Assembly: GCA_022790575.1 (NCBI GenBank)
Contig: JAAVXM010000025.1
Location: 410-64,409, forward strand
Direction of reading: 5' to 3'
Origin: Clostridia bacterium
Lineage (GTDB): Bacteria; Bacillota; Clostridia; TANB77; CAG-508
Length of the DNA: 64,000 nucleotides
Shown here: positions 16,855-51,416 of the stretch, piece by piece
How positions within the stretch are numbered: the stretch's first letter is position 1
How the letters are laid out: each line of letters opens with the position of its first letter
The notes under the pieces: generated by a model
What the model saw: only the letters and a program-made list of their open reading frames with translations
Database searches by the model: none
Told to the model about the DNA's origin: nothing
Translations under genes and position numbers: made by a program

Positions 16855-17709
16855 ATGATAATAGAAATAGAGCAATATATAGCATTATTTTTTATATATT
16901 CATTTGCTGGCTGGTTAATGGAATCTGTTGGAGAAAGTGTCAAAGGTTTTCTAGGGATAGCAGCAGAAGAAAATACTTCAAAGAAAAGATTTGTAAATAG
17001 AGGATTTTTAATTGGACCATATTGTCCAATATATGGAGCAGGAGTATTATTAATAACTATTTTGTTAGAAAAATATAATAATGATATATGGATAATATTT
17101 TTTATGTCATTATTAATATGTGGTATACTAGAATACATGACAAGTTATTTAATGGAAAAACTATTTAAAGCAAGATGGTGGGATTATAGTACAAAGAAAT
17201 TTAATATAAATGGAAGAATATGTCTAGAAACATTAATACCATTTGGACTAGCAGGAACATTTATAATATATATAGCAAATCCATTCTTTTTAAAATATAT
17301 AGAAATGTTACCAAATATAGTAATGCATATATTTACAATTTCATTCTTAATAATATATATTACTGACATGATTATTTCTTTAAAAATAATACTTAATCTA
17401 AAAGAAATGTCAAAAGAATTCAAAGATAATACAATAGAAATTTCAGACAAAGTTAGAAGAATAATAAAAAGAAAATATGTTTTATATAGAAGAGTTGTTA
17501 GAGCATTCCCTAGAATAAAAGAAAATGTATTATATGATAGATGGGAAGATATAAAAAAGAAAATAGAAGAATCAAAAGAGGAAATTATGTTAAAAATAGA
17601 TACATCAAAAGAAGAAATTAGAAGTAAAATAGACACATCAAAAGAAGAGATTAGAGGAATAATAGATAACTCTAAGGAAAAAGCCAAAAGATTACACAAG
17701 AAAAAATAA
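16855..17709 (+). CDS. membrane protein of the 'putative ABC-transporter type IV' (PF06541-like) family with a repeat-containing charged C-terminal tail
   Basis: N-terminus FFIYSFAGWLMESV...FLIGPYCPIYG resembles that family. A paralog lies at 42678-43358. Confidence 0.6.
   Translation: MIIEIEQYIALFFIYSFAGWLMESVGESVKGFLGIAAEENTSKKRFVNRGFLIGPYCPIYGAGVLLITILLEKYNNDIWIIFFMSLLICGILEYMTSYLMEKLFKARWWDYSTKKFNINGRICLETLIPFGLAGTFIIYIANPFFLKYIEMLPNIVMHIFTISFLIIYITDMIISLKIILNLKEMSKEFKDNTIEISDKVRRIIKRKYVLYRRVVRAFPRIKENVLYDRWEDIKKKIEESKEEIMLKIDTSKEEIRSKIDTSKEEIRGIIDNSKEKAKRLHKKK
17560..17691 (+). repeat. 4 tandem copies of a 33-bp (11-codon) coding repeat
   Basis: The units encode KIEESKEEIML / KIDTSKEEIRS / KIDTSKEEIRG / IIDNSKEKAKR. 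The two middle units are nearly identical at the DNA level. Confidence 0.8.
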
Positions 17710-39576: not shown

Positions 39577-40563
39577 TTATTTATCATTTAAAGGATTACT
39601 TTCAACAGCATTCCTAACTCTTTCATTATTTACATGTGTATATATTTCTGTAGTAGAAATACTTTGATGTCCCAAAAGTTCTTGTAAAGCTCTAATATCA
39701 ACATCTCCATACTGATACATTAATGTTGCTGCAGTGTGTCTTAATTTATGAACAGATAAATTTTTTGAATCCAATCCAGCTTGCTTAAGTTCCTTACTAA
39801 TAATATTTTGTACAGTTCTATTACTAATTCTTCTTTTTTGTTCACTTAGAAACAACGCTTTATCTGAGTTTTTAGCATCTTTTTTTATTAGATTTTGAGG
39901 TGGGCGAGAAGATATATAATCATTTAATGCCTTCATACAAGATTTATTTAAGTATATTGTACGTTCTTTGTTTCCTTTTCCTATTACAGTCATTTTACAT
40001 TCACTAAAATCAATATCATTAATATTAATTCCAACTAACTCTGATAATCTCATTCCACAATTCAGAAAAAGTGTAGTAATAGCAAAATCCCTTTTTGCAT
40101 TTCTATTTTCGTCATTGTCTGCAACCTCTAATAGTTTTCTGCTATCTTCTAGTGATAAATATTTAGGCATCCTTTTTTCTAATTTAGGAGTTTCTAAATT
40201 TTGGGCAGGATTAACTTCTAAAATCTTTTCTTTAATACTCAAAAACTTAAAAAATATTCTAATAGTAGAAATCTTTCTAGCTCTTGTTGAAGCTTTACTT
40301 TTATTATCAATTGCTAAATGCGATATATATGTGTGTATATCATTTAACGTTATTCTTTTCAAGTCTTTTACAGTAAATAGTCTTATATCGATTTCATCAT
40401 AATCTGTCTTATCTGTTAGTTTAAAGTGTATCATCATAAACTTTAAAAAATTAGATAAGTCGTAATTATATTCTTTTACTGAATTGGGCGATTTATTTAA
40501 TATTGTTATTGAATAATCTAAAAATGAATTTAGATAGTCTGGATTTTTCTCTTTTGATATCAT
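39577..40563 (-). CDS. tyrosine-type site-specific recombinase (XerC/XerD-like)
   Basis: N-terminal SAM-like domain (YLNSFLDYSITILNKSPNSVKEY). C-terminal catalytic R...HKLRHTAAT...LLGHQSISTTEIYTHV. ATG 40563 lies behind GGAGATGG. Confidence 0.85.
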   Translation of the reverse strand: MISKEKNPDYLNSFLDYSITILNKSPNSVKEYNYDLSNFLKFMMIHFKLTDKTDYDEIDIRLFTVKDLKRITLNDIHTYISHLAIDNKSKASTRARKISTIRIFFKFLSIKEKILEVNPAQNLETPKLEKRMPKYLSLEDSRKLLEVADNDENRNAKRDFAITTLFLNCGMRLSELVGININDIDFSECKMTVIGKGNKERTIYLNKSCMKALNDYISSRPPQNLIKKDAKNSDKALFLSEQKRRISNRTVQNIISKELKQAGLDSKNLSVHKLRHTAATLMYQYGDVDIRALQELLGHQSISTTEIYTHVNNERVRNAVESNPLNDK

Positions 40564-40706
40564 ATTCCATCTCCATATAATTAATATTTTATGATATAAT
40601 AACATTTAATGAGAAAAAAATAAAGGGTTTATATAAAATTTTTAGCATGACTATCTACTAAAAGCAGCACAACCTATTTAGGCTATGCTACTTTTAGTTT
40701 GTATAC

Positions 40707-42677: not shown

Positions 42678-43358
42678 ATGATTACAAAACGAGGTTTAGG
42701 GATGGATAAATTAGATATAGATAAAAAAGAACTAATAAATGAAATTATAATTATATTTTGGGTTTTTATAATAGGAAGTGTATTAGGATATGTATATGAA
42801 ATGATAGTTGTACTATTTCAAAAAGGATTTTTTGAATCAAGACAAGGGCTAATATATGGTCCTTTTACTCCAGTATATGGAATAGGAGGAATTGTTTATT
42901 ATCTTGCATTTAAAATTATAAAAACACGAAATAAAGGTTTAGTATTTATACTAACTATGATATTAGGAGGAGTAACAGAATATTTAGCTTCTTATATTCA
43001 GGAAAAAGCTTTTGGAACAATATCATGGGATTATTCTAATTTATTATTTAATATAAATGGAAGAACAAGTTTATTGCATTGTTCTTATTGGGGAATTGCA
43101 GGAATTTTATATGTTTGCTATATTGAACCACTAATTAAAAAAGTGAAATCACATATAAATTCAGTTTCCTTAAAAATTGCCTTTTCTATACTTTTCACAT
43201 TTATGACATTCAACATATTAATTTCTTGTGCTGCAGCACAGAGGCAAGAAGAAAGAAGGAATAGTATAGAGTCTGATAGTAAATTTGATATGTTCTTAGA
43301 TAAATATTATCCAGATGAGTATATGGATAAAGTGTATGCAAATAAAAAAAATATGTAA
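42678..43358 (+). CDS. membrane protein, PF06541-like ('putative ABC-transporter type IV'), paralog of 16855-17709
   Basis: GSVLGYVYEMIV...GLIYGPFTPVYGIGG...WDYSNLLFNINGRTSL parallels the other copy (WDYSTKKFNINGRICL). Confidence 0.6.
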   Translation: MITKRGLGMDKLDIDKKELINEIIIIFWVFIIGSVLGYVYEMIVVLFQKGFFESRQGLIYGPFTPVYGIGGIVYYLAFKIIKTRNKGLVFILTMILGGVTEYLASYIQEKAFGTISWDYSNLLFNINGRTSLLHCSYWGIAGILYVCYIEPLIKKVKSHINSVSLKIAFSILFTFMTFNILISCAAAQRQEERRNSIESDSKFDMFLDKYYPDEYMDKVYANKKNM

Positions 43359-43482
43359 TATTTTAAGTTACAAATAAATGTAAATATATTAAGGGAGTAA
43401 ATTATATTGATGATTACTTCCTTTTATGTTATAATCCATTTATCATTAAAAAGAGAATAATGCAAAAATGAAGGGAATTGTT

Positions 43483-44685
43483 ATGAAAATAATTATACAT
43501 AGGGGAACAAATCAAATAGGAGGATGTATCACTGAAATTATTTCAGAAGCTGGTACTAGAATTATTATAGATATAGGTTCAAACTTACCAAATGCAGAAG
43601 GCAAAAAGAGTAAAGAAATAGAATTACAGGGGCTAACAAAAGGTAAAGCAAAATACGATGCCATATTTATTACTCATTATCATGGAGACCATATTGGACT
43701 ATATAATAAAATATTACACCAAATTCCAATTTATATAGGTGAAACAACAAAAGAAATTTTTAAACTACTACAAAATAAGCTATATAAGATTGATTTAGTA
43801 GAAAAGAAAGACTTAGAAAAAATAAATAGCTTCAATACTTTTAAGATACCTGGTAAAATACAAATAAAGGATATTACAATCACACCTATTGCTGTTGACC
43901 ATTCCGCTTTTGATGCATATATGTTTTTGATAGAATGTGATGGCAAAAAGCTTTTACATACAGGAGATTTCAGAACACATGGTCAAAGAGGAAATGCAGT
44001 TATTAGAGCACTTACAAAATATGTAGGAAAAGTAAATTGTCTTATCTGTGAAGGTACAACATTATCTAGAGAAAAAGAGCCTGTATTATCTGAAGTGCAG
44101 TTACAACAAAAAGCAGAAAAAATATTTAAAAGTAATAAATTTAATTTCGTGTTATGTAGTAGTACCAATATTGATAGAATAGCAGCTCTGCATAAAGCAG
44201 CTATTAAGTCAAACAAAATGTTTATTTGTGATAAATACCAAAAAAGCGTATTAGACTATATAGATAGTATCTCAAGAAGTAGTCTTTATAAATTTGATTC
44301 TAGCCGAGATACAAAAGTCTACTATTATGAAAATAATTTAATTAGTACAATGACAGAATATGGATTTGTTATGTTAATAAGAGCTAATAGACTATCCAAA
44401 ACCATTCTTAATAAATTTCCCAAAAGTACATTTATATATTCAGAATGGCTAGGATATTTAAAAAATGATAATGAAGAATATAAAAAAATTCAGGAAATTG
44501 TACCAAATGACTATATATATTTACATACAAGTGGACATGCTAGTCCAGAAGCAATAAAAAAAGTTATTGAAGTTACTAGCCCAGACATTGTTATACCAAT
44601 ACATACAGATGAGAAAGGAAATATTAATAAACTAACAAATAAGGCAAAATTATTAGAAGATGGAGAAGAATTTATTATAAATTAA
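43483..44685 (+). CDS. metallo-beta-lactamase fold nuclease of the beta-CASP (RNase J/CPSF/Artemis-like) type
   Basis: MBL motifs: IIDIG, THYHGDH, VDHS, HTGDF. Then CEGT, LHTSGHAS and IPIHT, which fit beta-CASP motifs A, B and C. ATG 43483 lies behind GAAGGGA. An extended -10 tgttataat lies upstream (43426-43434). Confidence 0.7.
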   Translation: MKIIIHRGTNQIGGCITEIISEAGTRIIIDIGSNLPNAEGKKSKEIELQGLTKGKAKYDAIFITHYHGDHIGLYNKILHQIPIYIGETTKEIFKLLQNKLYKIDLVEKKDLEKINSFNTFKIPGKIQIKDITITPIAVDHSAFDAYMFLIECDGKKLLHTGDFRTHGQRGNAVIRALTKYVGKVNCLICEGTTLSREKEPVLSEVQLQQKAEKIFKSNKFNFVLCSSTNIDRIAALHKAAIKSNKMFICDKYQKSVLDYIDSISRSSLYKFDSSRDTKVYYYENNLISTMTEYGFVMLIRANRLSKTILNKFPKSTFIYSEWLGYLKNDNEEYKKIQEIVPNDYIYLHTSGHASPEAIKKVIEVTSPDIVIPIHTDEKGNINKLTNKAKLLEDGEEFIIN

Positions 44686-44696
44686 AGGAGTATATA

Positions 44697-45881
44697 ATGA
44701 GAAAATTAAATCAAAAATTTGAAGATATGTTTAAAAATGAATATAATGGAATAATCCAGTATGTAAAAAAAAATGATAAGGTATTTTTAGGAATAAGACA
44801 CAACTATATTAATTTATATGTTGATGGAGGAAGTTTTTTAAAACTTACATATCATCCAAAATTAAATTGTTGTATAGGAGGAGTTGACAATAAATATTTT
44901 GTTAATGGAATAAAGATGCCAAAAGGTTTAGAAGCAATAAATAATAAAGTAATAGATAATATTCAAAATTGGCTAGACTTATTTGATGAACTAATATTAG
45001 CAATTCAAGCATACCAAAGAGGAGATTGGGGAGAAGAAAAAAGCAAAAAAATAGTAAAAAGAGAAAAGATTATTCAACAAAAATTAGTAAAAGAATTCAA
45101 CCAAAACTCAGATTACTTTGCATATGATATTGAATACTCAATGAAAGGAGTAAATGACTATATTTTAGATTCCAATAAAAACAAAATAAAAATGAAAAAT
45201 GGTACATATAGAACAAAATCATTAGGAAGAGCAGATATAATGTTAATAGGGAAACCAATTAATAATAAAATAAAAATATATTGTATGGAAGTTAAAGAAG
45301 GTTTAGGTGCATTTGGTGGAGTTTTACCCAATATATCAAAACAATCATCTGCTCCAAGTTTTGGAAGTGGAATAGCAGGTCATTTAAAAAACAATGTTGC
45401 AGTTATAAGTTCTGCAAGAACTGGGATTGCCTATAAAGCTAAAGACAATGCTGTTGAATACAAAATAAAAGAAACTTTAATTGAAGAAATAAAATATGCT
45501 TTACATTTTTATAATAGATTTGATTTATTAAAAAATACTAACTTCAAAAATCTAACAGATAAAGAAATTGATGGAATAAAACTATGTGACAAAAAAGATG
45601 CTGTAGAATTAGTCTTTTTCCTTGGGAACTATACAGATAGAACACCAGGTTGTTTTGAAAAATATTTAGGTATAAATTTAGCGCCTGATTTATGTTCAGC
45701 ATACTCTGTAAAGAATTTGTTAGACAATAAAAAGAAAAATGAGATAAATTTAGATTATATAAAAACAGAGGAATTGTTTGATTTTAAAGTATTAAAAACG
45801 GCAAAGAATTGTTTTGATAGTAATTTCGATTTAGATATTGAACATTATGATACTATTCATAAAGAAGAATTCAAAAAATAA
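44697..45881 (+). CDS. 394-aa hypothetical protein with a PD-(D/E)xK-like core (possibly Shedu/DUF4263-like; unverified)
   Basis: GRADIMLIG...IKIYCMEVKEG fits D...(D/E)xK spacing, preceded by acidic helices. The start lies 11 nt after the MBL gene stop, behind AAAGGAG. Confidence 0.55.
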   Translation: MRKLNQKFEDMFKNEYNGIIQYVKKNDKVFLGIRHNYINLYVDGGSFLKLTYHPKLNCCIGGVDNKYFVNGIKMPKGLEAINNKVIDNIQNWLDLFDELILAIQAYQRGDWGEEKSKKIVKREKIIQQKLVKEFNQNSDYFAYDIEYSMKGVNDYILDSNKNKIKMKNGTYRTKSLGRADIMLIGKPINNKIKIYCMEVKEGLGAFGGVLPNISKQSSAPSFGSGIAGHLKNNVAVISSARTGIAYKAKDNAVEYKIKETLIEEIKYALHFYNRFDLLKNTNFKNLTDKEIDGIKLCDKKDAVELVFFLGNYTDRTPGCFEKYLGINLAPDLCSAYSVKNLLDNKKKNEINLDYIKTEELFDFKVLKTAKNCFDSNFDLDIEHYDTIHKEEFKK

Positions 45882-45895
45882 TAAGGAGCAAACAT

Positions 45896-47794
45896 ATGTT
45901 ACAAAAAGAAATAAAAAAACAAATCATACCAACTTTAGTTAATTTAAATGAACTATTAAATTCACAAAAAAGATACTTTGTCCCAATATATCAAAGACCA
46001 TATGATTGGGATGAATGGAATATTGCCAAATTGATTGAAACATTAAGCAAACTAAATGAAGAGAAAAGATACGTTTTTTTAGGAAATATGGAATTTAGAG
46101 AAGAAGAAAATATGCAACAAATTATAGATGGACAGCAAAGAATAACAACACTATTAATGTTATTAAATTATTTGAATTCAGAGGCATATTCAGACAATAT
46201 AATAAAAGAAATGTTAAAAATAAAGGCACAGGGTGAAAATGGTAATGGTACTATAATTGATGACCAATATAAATTTGAAGAATTTATTAGAAACAAAGAA
46301 TTCAGTTCAAAAGAATTAGCTGAATTAGAAGGTTATTCTAATGCTAGATTAAGAAAAGAAAAAACAAGGAATTTCAAAAATTCTAATGTTTATAGGCTTA
46401 ACTATCATTATATAAAAACCAGCTTAAAAAATATAAACATTATAACTAAAGAGCAAAAGCAAAAATTCGCCACAAATATTTTAAATAATACTTATGTTGT
46501 AACTATAAATTTAAAGCAAGATATACAAGAAAGTGAAGCAATAGATATATTTGATGCAATCAATACAACTGGAAAGCCCTTAAGTATAAAAGACATATTT
46601 AAAATAAAAATGTATGAATACAGTAAAAACAGAGGAAAAAACAATCCAGATAAAGTAATTCAAAGTATTAACAAGTTATATAATAAAATAGAAGAAAAAA
46701 ATAGTCAAATTGTTAATAATGAATCTCTTATTAGAGAAGAAGAATCAACAGGCAAGTCTGAATATAATGAAATTAACATGATATCTGAAACATTTTCTCA
46801 AGATGATATTTTAAAGGTATATAAATTCATACTTATTTCAAGAGTAGTTAATAATAAAAATAAAGAAGAAAGAGCCAATTATAAAAGTGAGTTGTTTAAT
46901 ATGTCAAATGACAACTTTTACAATAAATTGTTCCTTCAAATATTAGATAAAAATTCAAAAAAGCAATTTGAGGGATTTGAAAAACAAGAAATTGATGTAC
47001 AAGAATTACAAGATATACATGAAGCATATGCAAATTTAGCAGATATAGTATTAAATTTAGAAAACATAGATGCAGAAACATATTTTGCATATAAGATGTT
47101 AAAAGGATATACTAGATATTCATGGGCTTATAGGTTTTTACCAGTTTTGTTTTTATGGAGATTCAAAAAAATAGACACTAACTTTAATTGTTTTGTAATA
47201 AATATCAGCAAAATATTTGAATATTATACTATTACAAAAAAGCAAGTTATAAATTATGTTAAAACATTTATAAATGATATAATAATTCAAATTGTGAACC
47301 CAGACTCAAGTCCAAAAGAAATAAATAAACAAATAAAAGATGAATTAAAGAAGTGTAGTAGAAAAATACTTCATAACGAATTACAAGGAGAAGTATCAAA
47401 CACTTGGTGGAAAAAGAACATATCTTGTTTGATTTTAGCCAAAAACGCTGAGAAAAAGTGTGAAAATGAGAATAATCAAAAATTATTAAAAAGATATCAA
47501 AGATTATTTACAAGAAAATTTGATATAGAACATATTTGTGCAACTGGTAATGATGATAAAAGGTTTAGAGGAAACAAAAATGCTATTGGAAATTTAATGC
47601 TTTTAGAATATTCAATAAATAGAAATATAAAAAATGATGATATAGAAAAGAAAATATTAAAATATACTCAATCAAAATTTGAAATTGTTAAAAATGAAGT
47701 TTTGCTTTTAAATATGGGGCTTGAAAACTATTATAAAAATTATGAAATGCGTCAAATCGATAAGATAGCAGAAATAGAAGCATATTTTGATTAG
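45896..47794 (+). CDS. DUF262 + DUF1524 (His-Me finger) protein, GmrSD/BrxU-like type IV restriction enzyme family
   Basis: N-terminal YFVPIYQRPYDW and IIDGQQRITTL (DUF262/ParB-like NTPase). C-terminal FDIEHICATG...IGNLMLLEYSINRNIKN (DUF1524 HNH-like). Confidence 0.8.
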   Translation: MLQKEIKKQIIPTLVNLNELLNSQKRYFVPIYQRPYDWDEWNIAKLIETLSKLNEEKRYVFLGNMEFREEENMQQIIDGQQRITTLLMLLNYLNSEAYSDNIIKEMLKIKAQGENGNGTIIDDQYKFEEFIRNKEFSSKELAELEGYSNARLRKEKTRNFKNSNVYRLNYHYIKTSLKNINIITKEQKQKFATNILNNTYVVTINLKQDIQESEAIDIFDAINTTGKPLSIKDIFKIKMYEYSKNRGKNNPDKVIQSINKLYNKIEEKNSQIVNNESLIREEESTGKSEYNEINMISETFSQDDILKVYKFILISRVVNNKNKEERANYKSELFNMSNDNFYNKLFLQILDKNSKKQFEGFEKQEIDVQELQDIHEAYANLADIVLNLENIDAETYFAYKMLKGYTRYSWAYRFLPVLFLWRFKKIDTNFNCFVINISKIFEYYTITKKQVINYVKTFINDIIIQIVNPDSSPKEINKQIKDELKKCSRKILHNELQGEVSNTWWKKNISCLILAKNAEKKCENENNQKLLKRYQRLFTRKFDIEHICATGNDDKRFRGNKNAIGNLMLLEYSINRNIKNDDIEKKILKYTQSKFEIVKNEVLLLNMGLENYYKNYEMRQIDKIAEIEAYFD

Positions 47795-47813
47795 TAAAAA
47801 GGAGAATAATAAA

Positions 47814-48809
47814 ATGGATTTATATGAGAAAAATGGAAATGTACTATACATATTAAATGTGTTAAAAAAATATAGTGATGAAGAACATATGGTCTCAGTG
47901 ACAGAAATTCAAAGAAAAATCAAGGAGATATATGATGTACAAATTGATACAAGAACAATCAGAAGAAATATAAATCTTTTAAAATATAAGTTAAATTATG
48001 ACATAAGTACAAGAGAAGAAAATGGAAAAGGGTATTATATTAATAGAGACCCTGATACGGATTTTGAACCTGGAGAAATAAGAGCCATAATTGATAATTT
48101 TAGTTATGCAAATTATATTGTCCCAAGAGTTGCTAAAGACATAATTGAAAAATGTAAAAACATTCAAAGTGTATATGAAAATGAAAAACTAAAAGATTAT
48201 CAAATATATGCAAATGATTCAAAAACAGAAAATGTAGAGGTAATTAAGAATATAGAGGATATCACAAATAGCATATATAACAATAATAAAATAAAATTTG
48301 AATATTGGAAATACATAATCACAAATAAACTAGAAAAAAAGATAGTAAGTTCTCCAACAGTTTCTCCATATGCGATTATATATAATAAGCAAGAGTTTTA
48401 TCTAATTGGTATAAAAGAAGGGCAACAAAACTTTTATAATTATAGATTAGATAGAATAAAAAATATAAAAATTCTTAATGAAAAAATCTCAATAAAAAAG
48501 AAAAAAAGCGAAGTACAAGAGTTTGCCGAATCTTCAGTTGAGATGTATGGAGGCAAGAAAGAGGAAGTTGAAGCAATTTGCAATATTAGACTATTAGATG
48601 CTATTTTCGATATATTTGGCAGAAATGTTACTATTGAAAAAATATCTGGAGATGATAATAACTTTAAATTAATTGTTGATACAAATCCTTTAGGTTTTAG
48701 AATGTGGGCTATGAGAAATATAGATTTGGTTGAAGTAAAAAGACCATTATCTCTTAGAGAAGAAATGAGAAAAATTATAAAAGAAGCGGCAAATAAATAT
48801 AACCAATAA
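47814..48809 (+). CDS. HTH + WYL domain transcriptional regulator
   Basis: N-terminal wHTH (MVSVTEIQRKIKE...IDTRTIRRNINLL). Central WYL-type segment (EFYLIGIKEG..NFYNYRLDRIKNIKIL). ATG 47814 lies behind AAAGGAGA, 19 nt after the previous stop. Confidence 0.8.
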   Translation: MDLYEKNGNVLYILNVLKKYSDEEHMVSVTEIQRKIKEIYDVQIDTRTIRRNINLLKYKLNYDISTREENGKGYYINRDPDTDFEPGEIRAIIDNFSYANYIVPRVAKDIIEKCKNIQSVYENEKLKDYQIYANDSKTENVEVIKNIEDITNSIYNNNKIKFEYWKYIITNKLEKKIVSSPTVSPYAIIYNKQEFYLIGIKEGQQNFYNYRLDRIKNIKILNEKISIKKKKSEVQEFAESSVEMYGGKKEEVEAICNIRLLDAIFDIFGRNVTIEKISGDDNNFKLIVDTNPLGFRMWAMRNIDLVEVKRPLSLREEMRKIIKEAANKYNQ

Positions 48810-48838
48810 AATATATAATAGAAATGGAAATATAATAT

Positions 48839-49747
48839 ATGATAGATATAGAAGCAATTATTAAAGAATTTATAGAAGGTACTTACAATAATACAGATTA
48901 TCCTACAAAATATTCTGTATGTGAATCATTAAAAAACAGAGGAAAATACTCACAATATATATACAATGAATTTAGTTTACAACATGAACTAGGAAATTAT
49001 TTAAGATACAAGTTAAATAAAGAGACAAATGGAAATTTTGAATATTTTGTTATATTTGAATATAATATTAATGAATTAATAGACAATAACTCAAAGATTG
49101 ATACTTGTAAAAGAGAAATTGATATTTTAATTATCAAATACAATACCAAAAAAGGGTGTACAGAAAAAAAGTATGCAATAGAATTAAAATATCTAAAAAA
49201 TGAGGCATATCCATATAGAATGTTTCAATGTATAAAAGATATGAGGTTTATGAATGACGTTTTAGAAGCAGGTATTGATGAGTCATATTGTGTAGTAGTA
49301 ACTGAAAACAGAGGTTTTTATGAAAGTACAAGTGAAAAGAACAAACATTTACACGAAAATAAAAAATTATTATCGGCTTATAAAAACTATGAAAAATCTC
49401 TAAATGAAGAAAAGGAAAGACTGTTAAAAAATCTAGGAAAAAATAATAAGGAACTTAAAAAAATTAACAAGCAAATAGAAATGGTAGAAGAAATAATAAA
49501 TGCAAATAATAAAGATTGTTTTCCTATAATTTACAAGTATTTTCGAGAATCAAATTGTGTATGGGAACGAGGAAAATATATTTATAGTAACTTAATAAAT
49601 AAGTTAGACATAATTGATATAAATGATTTTAACAAAAAAATGAAGTTTGAATGGTATTCTGTTAATAAAGAAGACATAAATGAGACAAATAAATATTATA
49701 TTTTAAAGTTTGAAAAAAAACATCACAATGCAATACGTGACCACTGA
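48839..49747 (+). CDS. 302-aa hypothetical protein with a PD-(D/E)xK-like core and a coiled-coil segment
   Basis: SLQHELGNYL...KREIDILII...KYAIELKYLKN...QCIKD fits an E...D...ExK...Q pattern. Lys/Glu-rich coiled coil around residues 170-210. Confidence 0.5.
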   Translation: MIDIEAIIKEFIEGTYNNTDYPTKYSVCESLKNRGKYSQYIYNEFSLQHELGNYLRYKLNKETNGNFEYFVIFEYNINELIDNNSKIDTCKREIDILIIKYNTKKGCTEKKYAIELKYLKNEAYPYRMFQCIKDMRFMNDVLEAGIDESYCVVVTENRGFYESTSEKNKHLHENKKLLSAYKNYEKSLNEEKERLLKNLGKNNKELKKINKQIEMVEEIINANNKDCFPIIYKYFRESNCVWERGKYIYSNLINKLDIIDINDFNKKMKFEWYSVNKEDINETNKYYILKFEKKHHNAIRDH

Positions 49748-49753
49748 TATTTT

Positions 49754-49806
49754 AATCTTAATTCTTATAATGTATAATAAAAACACTATAAGAATTAAGA
49801 TTTTTT
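49754..49806 (+). terminator. strong intrinsic terminator closing the five-gene operon
   Basis: Perfect 16-nt arms aatcttaattcttata (49754-49769) / tataagaattaagatt (49787-49802) plus a T-run. Confidence 0.75.
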
Positions 49807-49826
49807 ATATAAGGAGGAAATAAAAG

Positions 49827-51416
49827 ATGTTAAATAATTACAAATTAGATGCAGAAGATGAGGAAATTTTAAATGAACTAGATAATTTATGTGGAGTTGT
49901 TCAAAACAAAGATGTACTAAAGGATATAATTACATATATTAAATTAAGGCAAAATGATGAACTAGATTTTGGGAATTACAATATAATTATACGAAATGAC
50001 TCTTCTTACAATTTATTAAATGACCTTATAAGAGTTTGTGCTAAAATATTTGTGAAATATGAAATTATTTCAAATGATAGGATATGTTGTTTAGATAAAA
50101 TAATAAATAGCAGAAGAAGTTGTCCTTTTGATAAAATATCTGGAATTGAAGAAAGTATCATTGTAATTAATGACAGGAAATTACACATCGAATATACAGA
50201 TGAAATTGATAATTTGAGTAGAATTATGAAGCAATTTAAAGATAAAATATTTATTTTTGAGGACACGAATTATTGTGAAGGAGAAACAGATGCAGAACTT
50301 GGTCCTCTTGTAAATTGGAGATTAACAATTGAAAAGATATCATTAGAGGATAAACTAATGTATTGTAGAAATAGGTTAGATGAGAATAATTTAAAATATA
50401 AAAAGCAAGATATAAAAGAATTTGTAGATGTACCATTTTGGATGTTAAAAAACATGATAAATAAACTTATAATTGAATGTAAAAGTGGAAGTATCAATTT
50501 AATTAATAAGCAAATGCTTAACAAGAATAAACAAACATTTACAAAAAGCAATTCTAATCATCGTTCTAGAAATAGAAATAAAAAGGCTGATAAAAGTGCA
50601 AAAGAGGAATTGAATGGTTTAATTGGACTTGAGGGCATCAAAATGCAAATGGATAAAATTCTCAACTATGTAAAATTAAATAAGGAGAGAGGCAAAATGC
50701 CTACATTACATATGTGTTTTACAGGTAATCCTGGAACAGGAAAGACTAGCATTGCTAGAATAATTGGGAAGTTATTTGAACAAGAAAACATTTTAAGTGG
50801 AAGTGGTGATTTTGTTGAGATTCATGGACGAGACTTAGTAGCTAAATATGTAGGGTGGACTGCACAGAAAGTTCATAATACAGTCGAAAAAGCTATTGGA
50901 GGAGTTTTATTTATAGATGAAGCATATAGTTTGGTTTCTGATACAAAAGGTGGATTTGAGGATGAAGCTATTGCAACATTGATAAAAGAAATGGAAGACC
51001 ATAGAGATGAAATCTGTATAATACTTGCAGGTTATACTAATGAAATGGAAAATTTAATTAGGCAGAATCCAGGTTTTGAAAGTAGAATACAATTTACAGT
51101 TGAATTTCCAGATTATAATGAAAATGAATTACTAGAGATATTTACAGAATTGTGCAAGAAAGAACACTATAGGTTGTCAGAGACAGGAAAAGATATTCTA
51201 ATAAATCATTTTGCTATTGCCAAAAGTAAAGAAGCTTTTGGTAATGGAAGATATGTAAGAAATATATTTGAAAAAGTAAAATTTGAACAAGCAGACAGAA
51301 TAATTAGAACTAGTAGTAAATCAGTAAACACAATTAATAAAACTGATATTGAATGTGCACTTAAATCTTTTACATTAGATATAAAAGAAAAGAGAAAAAT
51401 CGGTTTTTGTGGTTAA
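49827..51416 (+). CDS. AAA+ ATPase of the CbbX/SpoVK type with a ~270-aa N-terminal extension
   Basis: Walker A GNPGTGKTS, Walker B VLFIDEAYSL, then ILAGY and GFESRI, typical of the CbbX/SpoVK/EccA clade. The N-terminal half lacks a P-loop. Confidence 0.8.
   Translation: MLNNYKLDAEDEEILNELDNLCGVVQNKDVLKDIITYIKLRQNDELDFGNYNIIIRNDSSYNLLNDLIRVCAKIFVKYEIISNDRICCLDKIINSRRSCPFDKISGIEESIIVINDRKLHIEYTDEIDNLSRIMKQFKDKIFIFEDTNYCEGETDAELGPLVNWRLTIEKISLEDKLMYCRNRLDENNLKYKKQDIKEFVDVPFWMLKNMINKLIIECKSGSINLINKQMLNKNKQTFTKSNSNHRSRNRNKKADKSAKEELNGLIGLEGIKMQMDKILNYVKLNKERGKMPTLHMCFTGNPGTGKTSIARIIGKLFEQENILSGSGDFVEIHGRDLVAKYVGWTAQKVHNTVEKAIGGVLFIDEAYSLVSDTKGGFEDEAIATLIKEMEDHRDEICIILAGYTNEMENLIRQNPGFESRIQFTVEFPDYNENELLEIFTELCKKEHYRLSETGKDILINHFAIAKSKEAFGNGRYVRNIFEKVKFEQADRIIRTSSKSVNTINKTDIECALKSFTLDIKEKRKIGFCG

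Follow-up and report, generated by a model that had tools for sequence, protein, structure and literature searches.

A five-gene nuclease cluster in a Clostridia bacterium is probably a mosaic of separate modules beside a conserved WYL regulator and AAA+ ATPase pair

Do five closely packed genes, four for known or putative nucleases and one for a WYL-domain regulator, form a single anti-phage system, or do they belong to separate systems that share one place in the chromosome? This question is raised by a 64-kb stretch of DNA from a Clostridia bacterium (contig JAAVXM010000025.1 of assembly GCA_022790575.1), here called the window. A preliminary description, made from the sequence alone, had singled out the interval 43426-49806 as either one multi-component system or two or three stacked systems under one WYL-controlled promoter. 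We call the five genes of this interval g1 to g5 and the gene that follows them g6, and compared them with loci on related or homologue-bearing contigs (L001 and so on). Our analysis suggests that the interval is probably a compact mosaic island, in which three separate nuclease modules stand beside a lineage-conserved pair of a WYL regulator and an AAA+ ATPase, and not one machine.

The gene layout agreed with the first reading. Five co-directional open reading frames (ORFs) on the + strand span 43468-49747 and are separated by 11, 14, 19 and 29 nt. They encode a beta-CASP metallo-beta-lactamase (MBL; g1, 43468-44685, 405 aa), its orphan partner (g2, 44697-45881, 394 aa), a GmrSD-family protein (g3, 45896-47794, 632 aa), a winged helix-turn-helix (wHTH)-WYL-(WCX) regulator (g4, 47814-48809) and a standalone PD-(D/E)xK-like protein (g5, 48839-49747, 302 aa). 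The 19-nt gap requires that g4 starts at the ATG at 47814 and not at 47787, the other start of this ORF, and we adopted the ATG at 47814 because the orthologues align from residue 1 (MDLYEKNG). Beyond the interval, g6 (49827-51416, + strand) encodes an AAA+ ATPase of the SpoVK/CbbX/EccA type. The GC content is about 25% across the whole window, with no compositional break at the interval.

To which extent these genes travel together was judged from about 75 WYL loci, surveyed by tblastn and clustering of all ORFs. The gene set of the window was repeated in none of them, so that neither the idea of one multi-component system nor a conserved five-gene order across genomes was borne out. The parts recurred separately: MBL+g2, GmrSD and g5 each occurred without the others in related loci, which agrees with the alternative of two or three stacked systems. 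Because the contexts of the homologues separate them, the five genes fall into MBL+g2, GmrSD, and WYL with g5.

The pairing of MBL and g2 was the most distinctive of these associations. The MBL gene adjoined a g2 homologue in six of seven independent contexts, in either order and with or without GmrSD or WYL. MBL was followed by g2 after three GmrSD genes in L001, by g2, a helix-turn-helix protein and an RNase T-type exonuclease in L005, and stood with g2 between DnaE and PolC genes in L009; g2 preceded MBL in L003, where housekeeping genes flank the pair and no other module is present, and as a fusion in L008; the order in L010 was WYL, MBL, g2. The fusion (protein P0006, L008:8001-10019) comprises 672 aa, and its N-terminal region, which replaces the first ~58 residues of g2, gave weak P-loop NTPase matches at residues about 280-320; the MBL gene lies downstream. 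On alphaproteobacterial plasmids from Cereibacter, Rhizobium, Ochrobactrum and two Sphingomonas species, a gene of the g2 superfamily adjoined each MBL gene (E 6e-13 to 2e-6), and the neighbours of these pairs were Tn3/Tn7-type transposition genes, restriction-modification genes or an AddB/UvrD-like pair. On the Butyrivibrio plasmid pCY186 the order was WYL, a 277-aa protein with a D...ELK motif, and MBL. Facing MBL and a metallophosphatase on a Prevotella plasmid are one WYL and two DUF262 genes. A small metallophosphoesterase gene was seen 3' of MBL both in L104 (plasmid of Prevotella sp. E2-28) and in L106 (Cereibacter plasmid), that is, in two distant phyla, and may represent a third component in some versions of the MBL module. 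One MBL match on an E. coli plasmid (H14) was rejected as part of an unrelated ABC-transporter operon.

What might these proteins do? The domain calls made earlier (beta-CASP MBL, DUF262-DUF1524 and WYL) agreed with our Pfam searches. For g1, Lactamase_B and Lactamase_B_2 (9e-11) were matched, with a weak RMMBL match (0.003), and the closest solved chains were 2az4 (EF2904) and RNase J1, aligned over residues 32-403. In the translation we read the MBL motifs D35, HYHGDH, DH and GD, as well as CEG, SGH and IH where beta-CASP motifs A-C would be expected. The His at motif C is what we take to be the RNA-type residue, as opposed to the Val of SNM1/Artemis. We thus regard g1 as a predicted RNase J-like beta-CASP MBL nuclease that falls outside the RNase J family proper: its score against the NCBIfam family TIGR00649 was 88 bits (cut-off 400; profile positions 8-387 of 546), and it ends at residue 405, without the C-terminal (dimerisation) domain of RNase J. 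Its true start may lie at the second ATG, 43483 (MKIIIHRG...), which has the ribosome-binding site AAGGGA 8 nt upstream; none precedes 43468.

Its partner g2 matched no family in Pfam, PADLOC, NCBIfam or PHROG, and gave no match in IMG/VR, PLSDB or INPHARED. Close homologues are rare (17 among 5.8 billion clustered proteins), and all keep E123, Q127, D144-x-E146, D180 and E198-x-K200. The AlphaFold2 (AF2) model (predicted local distance difference test score, pLDDT, 91.8) combines an N-terminal beta-rich domain with a core that holds the invariant residues, and the order of its elements fits the alpha-beta-beta-beta-alpha(-beta) core of PD-(D/E)xK enzymes. A profile search with the g2 family returned 565 representative clusters, mostly of ~320 aa, and none of ten sampled representatives was found in Pfam. 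Since a wide MAFFT alignment of the superfamily misaligned the C-terminal half, we used a regular-expression count instead: the pattern D-x-E...D...E-x-K was kept by at least half of this wider family and by no shuffled sequence. We infer that g2 represents a PD-(D/E)xK-like family that is new to the four family libraries searched.

The second orphan, g5, likewise had no match in Pfam, PADLOC or NCBIfam, and among the plasmids and phages searched none was found; PHROG gave only a marginal match (E 1.4e-4) over part of a coiled-coil insert. This insert, at about residues 165-225, is added in the window form to a family of at least 715 homologues, most of ~190 aa, in which E50, D95 and E115-x-K117 are invariant. 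Thus, both proteins noted earlier as orphans with D...ExK spacing remained without a family, and the residues proved invariant across the homologues of each. The structural comparison that had been proposed for the two models gave a mixed result. That of g5 (AF2 pLDDT 90.4) weakly resembled the CinB nuclease domain (E 5e-3, prob 0.95), Rep15 and Cas4, its best folds in the Protein Data Bank (PDB), while that of g2 had no significant Foldseek neighbour in the PDB or BFVD (best BsmI, prob 0.28). No PDB sequence was found in profile searches with either g2 or g5, and a comparison of the two profiles showed them to be unrelated (E 0.31).

As to its context, g5 adjoins the WYL orthologue in three loci, with the orders HD protein, g5, WYL, AAA+ gene (L011); DUF2779, two genes, g5, WYL, two GmrSD genes (L012); and helicase, MZB protein, DUF2779, g5, WYL (L013). 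In L060 one gene intervenes. That is, g5 and WYL are paired without MBL or g2. Short relatives of the g5 core (~180-190 aa) were also seen on ten predicted viral contigs from IMG/VR (L094-L103), several at or near a contig end, and on four gut contigs (L112-L115) beside a tyrosine recombinase and a PLD-SWI2/SNF2-DUF3427 helicase gene.

Of all five proteins, g3 was the easiest to place. It exceeded the Pfam cut-offs for both GmrSD_N (DUF262, PF03235; 6.3e-30, 105 bits versus 33.2) and GmrSD_C (DUF1524, PF07510, a His-Me/HNH-like nuclease domain; 1.3e-8, 35.2 bits versus 23), and its translation holds the motifs DGQQR (in IIDGQQRITT) and DIEH...GN...N. PADLOC matches to HEC-06, Orf5 and SspE-like models cover mainly the N-terminal DUF262 half. 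By these domains g3 is a GmrSD-family type IV restriction enzyme, with predicted cleavage of modified DNA such as that with glucosyl-hmC, and family membership makes its presumed anti-phage role well grounded.

The nuclease modules change from locus to locus. What stays is the regulator and its partner. The g4 protein matched the Pfam family WYL above its cut-off (3.8e-10, 40 bits) and WCX below it (17.3 versus 23.9 bits); PADLOC returned generic WYL models (2e-22), and at the sequence level no solved WYL regulator was matched. In a genome scan with the WYL protein, orthologues with 55-82% identity were present in about 70 species-level metagenome-assembled genomes of gut Clostridia; identity was 78% to the WYL protein beside g5 and GmrSD (L012) and 60% to that beside MBL and g2 (L010). 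An AAA+ gene lay at most three genes from WYL in 31 loci, directly downstream in 15 and, as a 44%-identical version, directly upstream in 5. In L011, the AAA+ gene beside WYL is 65% identical to g6. Across species, the identities of WYL and AAA drop together. The flanking genes had been called ordinary in the preliminary description; with g6, the gene on the right turned out to be the most constant neighbour of this WYL gene across species. Its product matched the Pfam families AAA (3.6e-20) and AAA_lid_6, carries a ~250-aa N-terminal domain of unassigned type, scored 246 bits against the NCBIfam model spore_V_K (cut-off 423), and has CbbX as its closest solved structure.

Around this pair, the variable neighbours are dominated by defence-island families, and g4 thus co-localises with diverse defence genes: among the neighbour clusters were six GmrSD_N, three RhuM (PDC-S05), three GIY-YIG, two each of Mrr, PDDEXK_4, HD, HNH and ResIII, and PDC-S02. 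A ~500-aa protein of the DUF2779/UU173 family, a domain that we assume to be nuclease-related, is encoded upstream of WYL in 32 loci. L081 illustrates the exchange, since it keeps the order cmpB...WYL...AAA and fills the first slot with DUF2779 and an unknown gene and the second with a DnaB-like helicase and a Pol III alpha-like polymerase. In most relatives (for example L081:7519-16223, L022:210-9972, L001:9481-12846) we noted DUF2779 at the WYL locus together with one to three genes with a DnaB C-terminal domain, some apparently split, and a Pol III alpha-like polymerase of ~1100 aa. Each of these three gene types stands behind a box promoter (see below) in the relatives, and none of them is present in the 64-kb window.

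This brings us to a DNA element that follows the WYL gene. By reading the regions upstream of the AAA+ genes we discovered a 14-nt box, RCAWTRYRTGACCA, which is followed by N6, TTGAAA, N17 and TATAAT (103 distinct instances, in the window and among the loci L010-L085; for example L081:16458-16542 and L044:12190-12274). Of 110 box matches, 108 are on the WYL strand. They cluster between -4 and +2 kb of WYL, with just 3 of 100 beyond 6 kb, and in 40 of 72 loci a box lies at most 200 nt past the WYL stop codon. Downstream of the boxes come WYL operons, DUF2779, the helicase and polymerase genes, several genes of unknown type and the AAA+ gene, and the box itself frequently overlaps the stop codon of the gene before it. 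When metagenomes were scanned independently for the box pattern, the matches were mainly low-GC ones of promoter type, directly upstream of g6-type AAA+ genes or near WYL, along with one unrelated group of matches in higher-GC contigs, apparently within coding sequence. In the window the box is present once in 64 kb (CAATACGTGACCA, 49731-49743, + strand): it lies across the end of g5 (final codons and stop codon), 83 nt before the start codon of g6, and is followed by a weak -35-like TTTTAA. We also considered an integron-like cassette array and rejected it, as the repeats show promoter anatomy (box, N6, -35, N17, -10) and not that of attC-type sites.

The second half of this element is a hairpin. 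In the window its perfect 16-bp arms (49754-49769 and 49787-49802) enclose a 17-nt loop with TATAAT and run into a T-run at 49801-49807, whose first two T form the end of the 3' arm. Its folding energy is -18.4 kcal/mol (z = -5.4), and none of 200 shuffles was as stable. A simple terminator scan missed it because it is AT-rich and has a 17-nt loop; Rfam matched zero families over the interval. An inverted repeat spans the -10 hexamer at 46 of 105 boxes versus 11 of 105 in shuffles. In nine in-register sequences, 94.9% of cells were paired and 8 of 11 pairs showed compensatory changes, which none of 500 shuffles reached; no slid register of the same alignment came near the true covariation. From a mixed alignment of 22 sequences RNAalifold gave no structure, since the stems in it were not in register. 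The 16-bp-stem terminator described earlier therefore stands as a hairpin, but one that forms half of a conserved element. We read the segment 49754-49807 as a probable terminator of the five genes that also carries the g6 promoter. A transcript from the box promoter would hold only the 3' arm; therefore, the hairpin can stop upstream transcripts and spare the downstream gene.

Which protein could read the box? WYL is the natural candidate because no other regulator is conserved in these loci and the DNA-binding end of WYL hardly varies; on these grounds, binding of WYL to the box is suggested. The promoter in front of the five genes is of another kind. At 43407-43435 (+ strand) we found a candidate sigma-70-type promoter, TTGATG-17-TATAAT with an upstream TG. 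The extended -10 promoter proposed before is thus plausible, but had been placed one base off. It is not proven, since such matches are common in AT-rich DNA: in DNA of 25% GC, promoter-like sites numbered 86 versus 71 +/- 8 expected, that is, they are not rarer than chance. The best-scoring promoter-like site of the region, a perfect 12/12 TTGACA-18-TATAAT, lies antisense within the GmrSD gene (46907-46878, - strand).

Taken as a mosaic island, the interval could work as follows. MBL+g2 and GmrSD, upstream of WYL, would be co-read with WYL and g5 from the ordinary promoter at 43407-43435, and the hairpin at 49754-49802 would end this five-gene transcript. GmrSD would cut modified phage DNA. 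On context, MBL+g2 and g5 would be nucleases with an anti-phage role as well: g2 might cut endonucleolytically, and the RNase J-like MBL might then degrade in the 5'-to-3' direction from the new 5'-phosphate ends, a division of labour that is a reasonable guess and nothing more, while g5 would work alone as a nuclease. WYL would sense single-stranded nucleic acid, like CapW, DriD and PafBC, and act at promoters with the box, N6, TTGAAA, N17 and TATAAT; in the window this would be the g6 promoter, with its -10 inside the hairpin loop. A wider proposal is more speculative, and we put it forward tentatively: MBL+g2 would be an unnamed cross-phylum two-nuclease system against phages or plasmids, and WYL and AAA+ a hub of gut Clostridia whose GTGACCA-box units, each a terminator and promoter in one, dock and co-regulate interchangeable nuclease cassettes.

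Several observations weigh against the mosaic island and the mechanism drawn from it. When the region of the operon promoter (43359-43467) was searched for the box, none was found, so that WYL control of the five genes is unsupported; the one WYL-controlled promoter of the preliminary description has to be given up, as the only cis element that tracks WYL sits before g6. A crude search for operators upstream of WYL operons (k-mers and inverted repeats) did no better than on shuffles. The pairing has exceptions: in L007 g2 stands alone, with MBL absent from its neighbourhood, and at three MBL loci near a WYL orthologue the partners show weak likeness to g2 (hhalign E 1e-3 and 1.4e-4) or no more than a motif. 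The putative nuclease fold of g2 is deduced only from the motif and the order of secondary-structure elements, as no structure proved to be a significant neighbour. PADLOC has no model for MBL+g2 or g5, and literature searches for MBL-based defence returned nothing relevant, and nothing that ties MBL+g2 or g5 to phage defence. Finally, among the genes that recur near WYL are those for a DnaB-like helicase and for a Pol III alpha-like polymerase, which suit a DNA-damage or replication regulon equally well.

Such a regulon is the main rival. Here, a PafBC/DriD-like WYL activator would respond to DNA damage or replication stress, MBL (in the manner of SNM1/Artemis), g2, g5 and DUF2779 would be repair nucleases, and GmrSD an incidental passenger. 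Box promoters precede the genes for DUF2779, the DnaB-like helicase, the Pol III alpha-like polymerase, the AAA+ protein and WYL itself, and the site of the box, upstream of a good -35, is one that activators typically use. MBL+g2 is directly beside a Pol III alpha-like gene in L001 and between DnaE and PolC genes in L009, and in L063 and L085 a member of a second cluster of polymerase-like genes is only a few genes away from MBL. Against this, g1 has His at motif C, which we take for the RNA-type residue, where SNM1/Artemis have Val; the neighbours that vary belong to families classic for defence islands (GmrSD, Mrr, RhuM/PDC-S05, PDC-S02, GIY-YIG); MBL+g2 occurs on plasmids, in transposon contexts and beside restriction-modification genes; and presence among close species is patchy, which is unexpected for core repair genes. 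WYL regulators of DNA-damage responses that bind single-stranded DNA (ssDNA) are documented (PMC6789036, PMC10853764, PMC10693628). On balance we consider this explanation unlikely as a replacement for the mosaic island, although the two can coexist because damage-sensing regulators are known to control defence genes (PMC11662680).

Two further explanations carry less weight. WYL, AAA and their cargo could make up an integrated mobile element, such as a satellite or island equipped with its own helicase, polymerase and tyrosine recombinase, in which the box-hairpin repeats are recombination junctions between cassettes. A tyrosine recombinase is indeed encoded 2.9 kb upstream, with homologues near WYL in L010 (63%) and L019 (82%), the modules around WYL change their order from species to species, with a box retained by each unit, and boxes overlap the stop codons of unrelated upstream genes. 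We nevertheless judge this improbable, given that -35 and -10 always follow the box at fixed spacing, as in promoters and not as in attC-like sites, that WYL and AAA identities drop together as under vertical descent, that the window has no GC shift (no search for flanking direct repeats was made), and that metabolic genes separate the recombinase from the operon. Least probable is that the five genes form one obligate multi-component defence system, in which MBL, g2, GmrSD and g5 cooperate under the embedded WYL protein. Tight spacing, one plausible promoter and one hairpin speak for it, as do WYL, DUF262 and MBL together on the Prevotella plasmid and WYL, a hypothetical gene and MBL on Butyrivibrio pCY186. 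It is largely refuted by the context data: the set recurs in 0 of about 75 loci, MBL+g2 is found without GmrSD, WYL or g5 in L003, L009 and on proteobacterial plasmids, and g5 is found without MBL or g2. The mosaic island is hence the reading that we retain, with its boundary moved to take in g6 and the g6 promoter.

How does this island compare with known systems? As stated in the preliminary description, no named system fits: in PADLOC-DB v2, g1, g2 and g5 were unmatched, g3 matched DUF262-type models only and g4 generic WYL models. GmrSD/BrxU type IV enzymes with a BrxR-type WYL regulator are known from the pEFER defence island (PMC8565348, PMC9122601). Like these, the window has a g3 with both GmrSD domains above Pfam cut-offs and a wHTH-WYL regulator in the same cluster, among genes of defence type. 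In contrast to BrxR and CapW, g4 is the fourth and not the first gene of the operon, and no inverted-repeat operator was found at the operon promoter; unlike in the BrxU/BrxR island of pEFER, BREX is absent, and the WYL gene has orthologues throughout the clade, is coupled to an AAA+ gene and goes with an upstream box that is not palindromic. With the ssDNA-sensing WYL regulators CapW, PafBC, DriD and SiwR (PMC11662680, PMC6789036, PMC10853764, PMC10693628), g4 shares the association with defence or DNA-damage genes and probably the domain order, its WCX match being below the cut-off. PafBC-type activators use an asymmetric motif upstream of the -10, which the arrangement of the box resembles; what differs is the sequence of the box, the putative WYL target here, and the N6 that separates it from a full -35.

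For the nucleases, likeness to known enzymes is similarly partial. Over its full length g1 aligns with 2az4 (EF2904) and RNase J1 and keeps the metal-binding motifs, but it lacks the C-terminal domain of RNase J and scores far under the family cut-off. A beta-CASP enzyme used in immunity is Cas14 of type VII CRISPR (PMC13069675); g1 differs from it in its partner, a PD-(D/E)xK-like protein in place of CRISPR components. Like single-gene PD-(D/E)xK defence nucleases and PADLOC candidates such as PDC-S26, g2 and g5 have an invariant D...ExK, a predicted order of elements that fits alpha-beta-beta-beta-alpha and neighbourhoods of defence type. In contrast to these candidates, they are without a model in PADLOC, Pfam or NCBIfam; no fold was a significant neighbour of g2, and g5 carries the coiled-coil insertion.

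Two further features were seen in the vicinity of the operon. The window holds two paralogous genes for CmpB-type membrane proteins, at 16855-17709 and 42678-43358, the second of which directly borders the operon; a CmpB homologue lies on the same side of the WYL locus in L081. Further upstream, the Xer-like tyrosine recombinase (39577-40605, - strand) has generic Phage_integrase domains only, and genes for a flavodiiron protein and rubredoxin lie between it and the operon. Its homologues are located 1.6 kb (L010) and 9.4 kb (L019) upstream of WYL. The recombinase may be part of the core synteny or of a mobile backbone.

Defence islands under WYL control are already known; new here are the MBL+g2 pair, the WYL and AAA+ hub and the box-hairpin element. 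With clear catalytic residues, no library family and no literature match, MBL+g2 is a testable two-gene candidate. That WYL and AAA+ are kept together across about 70 uncultured gut species hints at a pair of sensor and remodeller. The box, its promoter and the covarying hairpin would offer a concrete DNA target for WYL, by which the regulon could be marked directly in metagenomes of organisms that have yet to be grown. If the wider proposal is true, these bacteria would possess a promoter-cassette architecture for immune genes that responds to signals of nucleic-acid damage.

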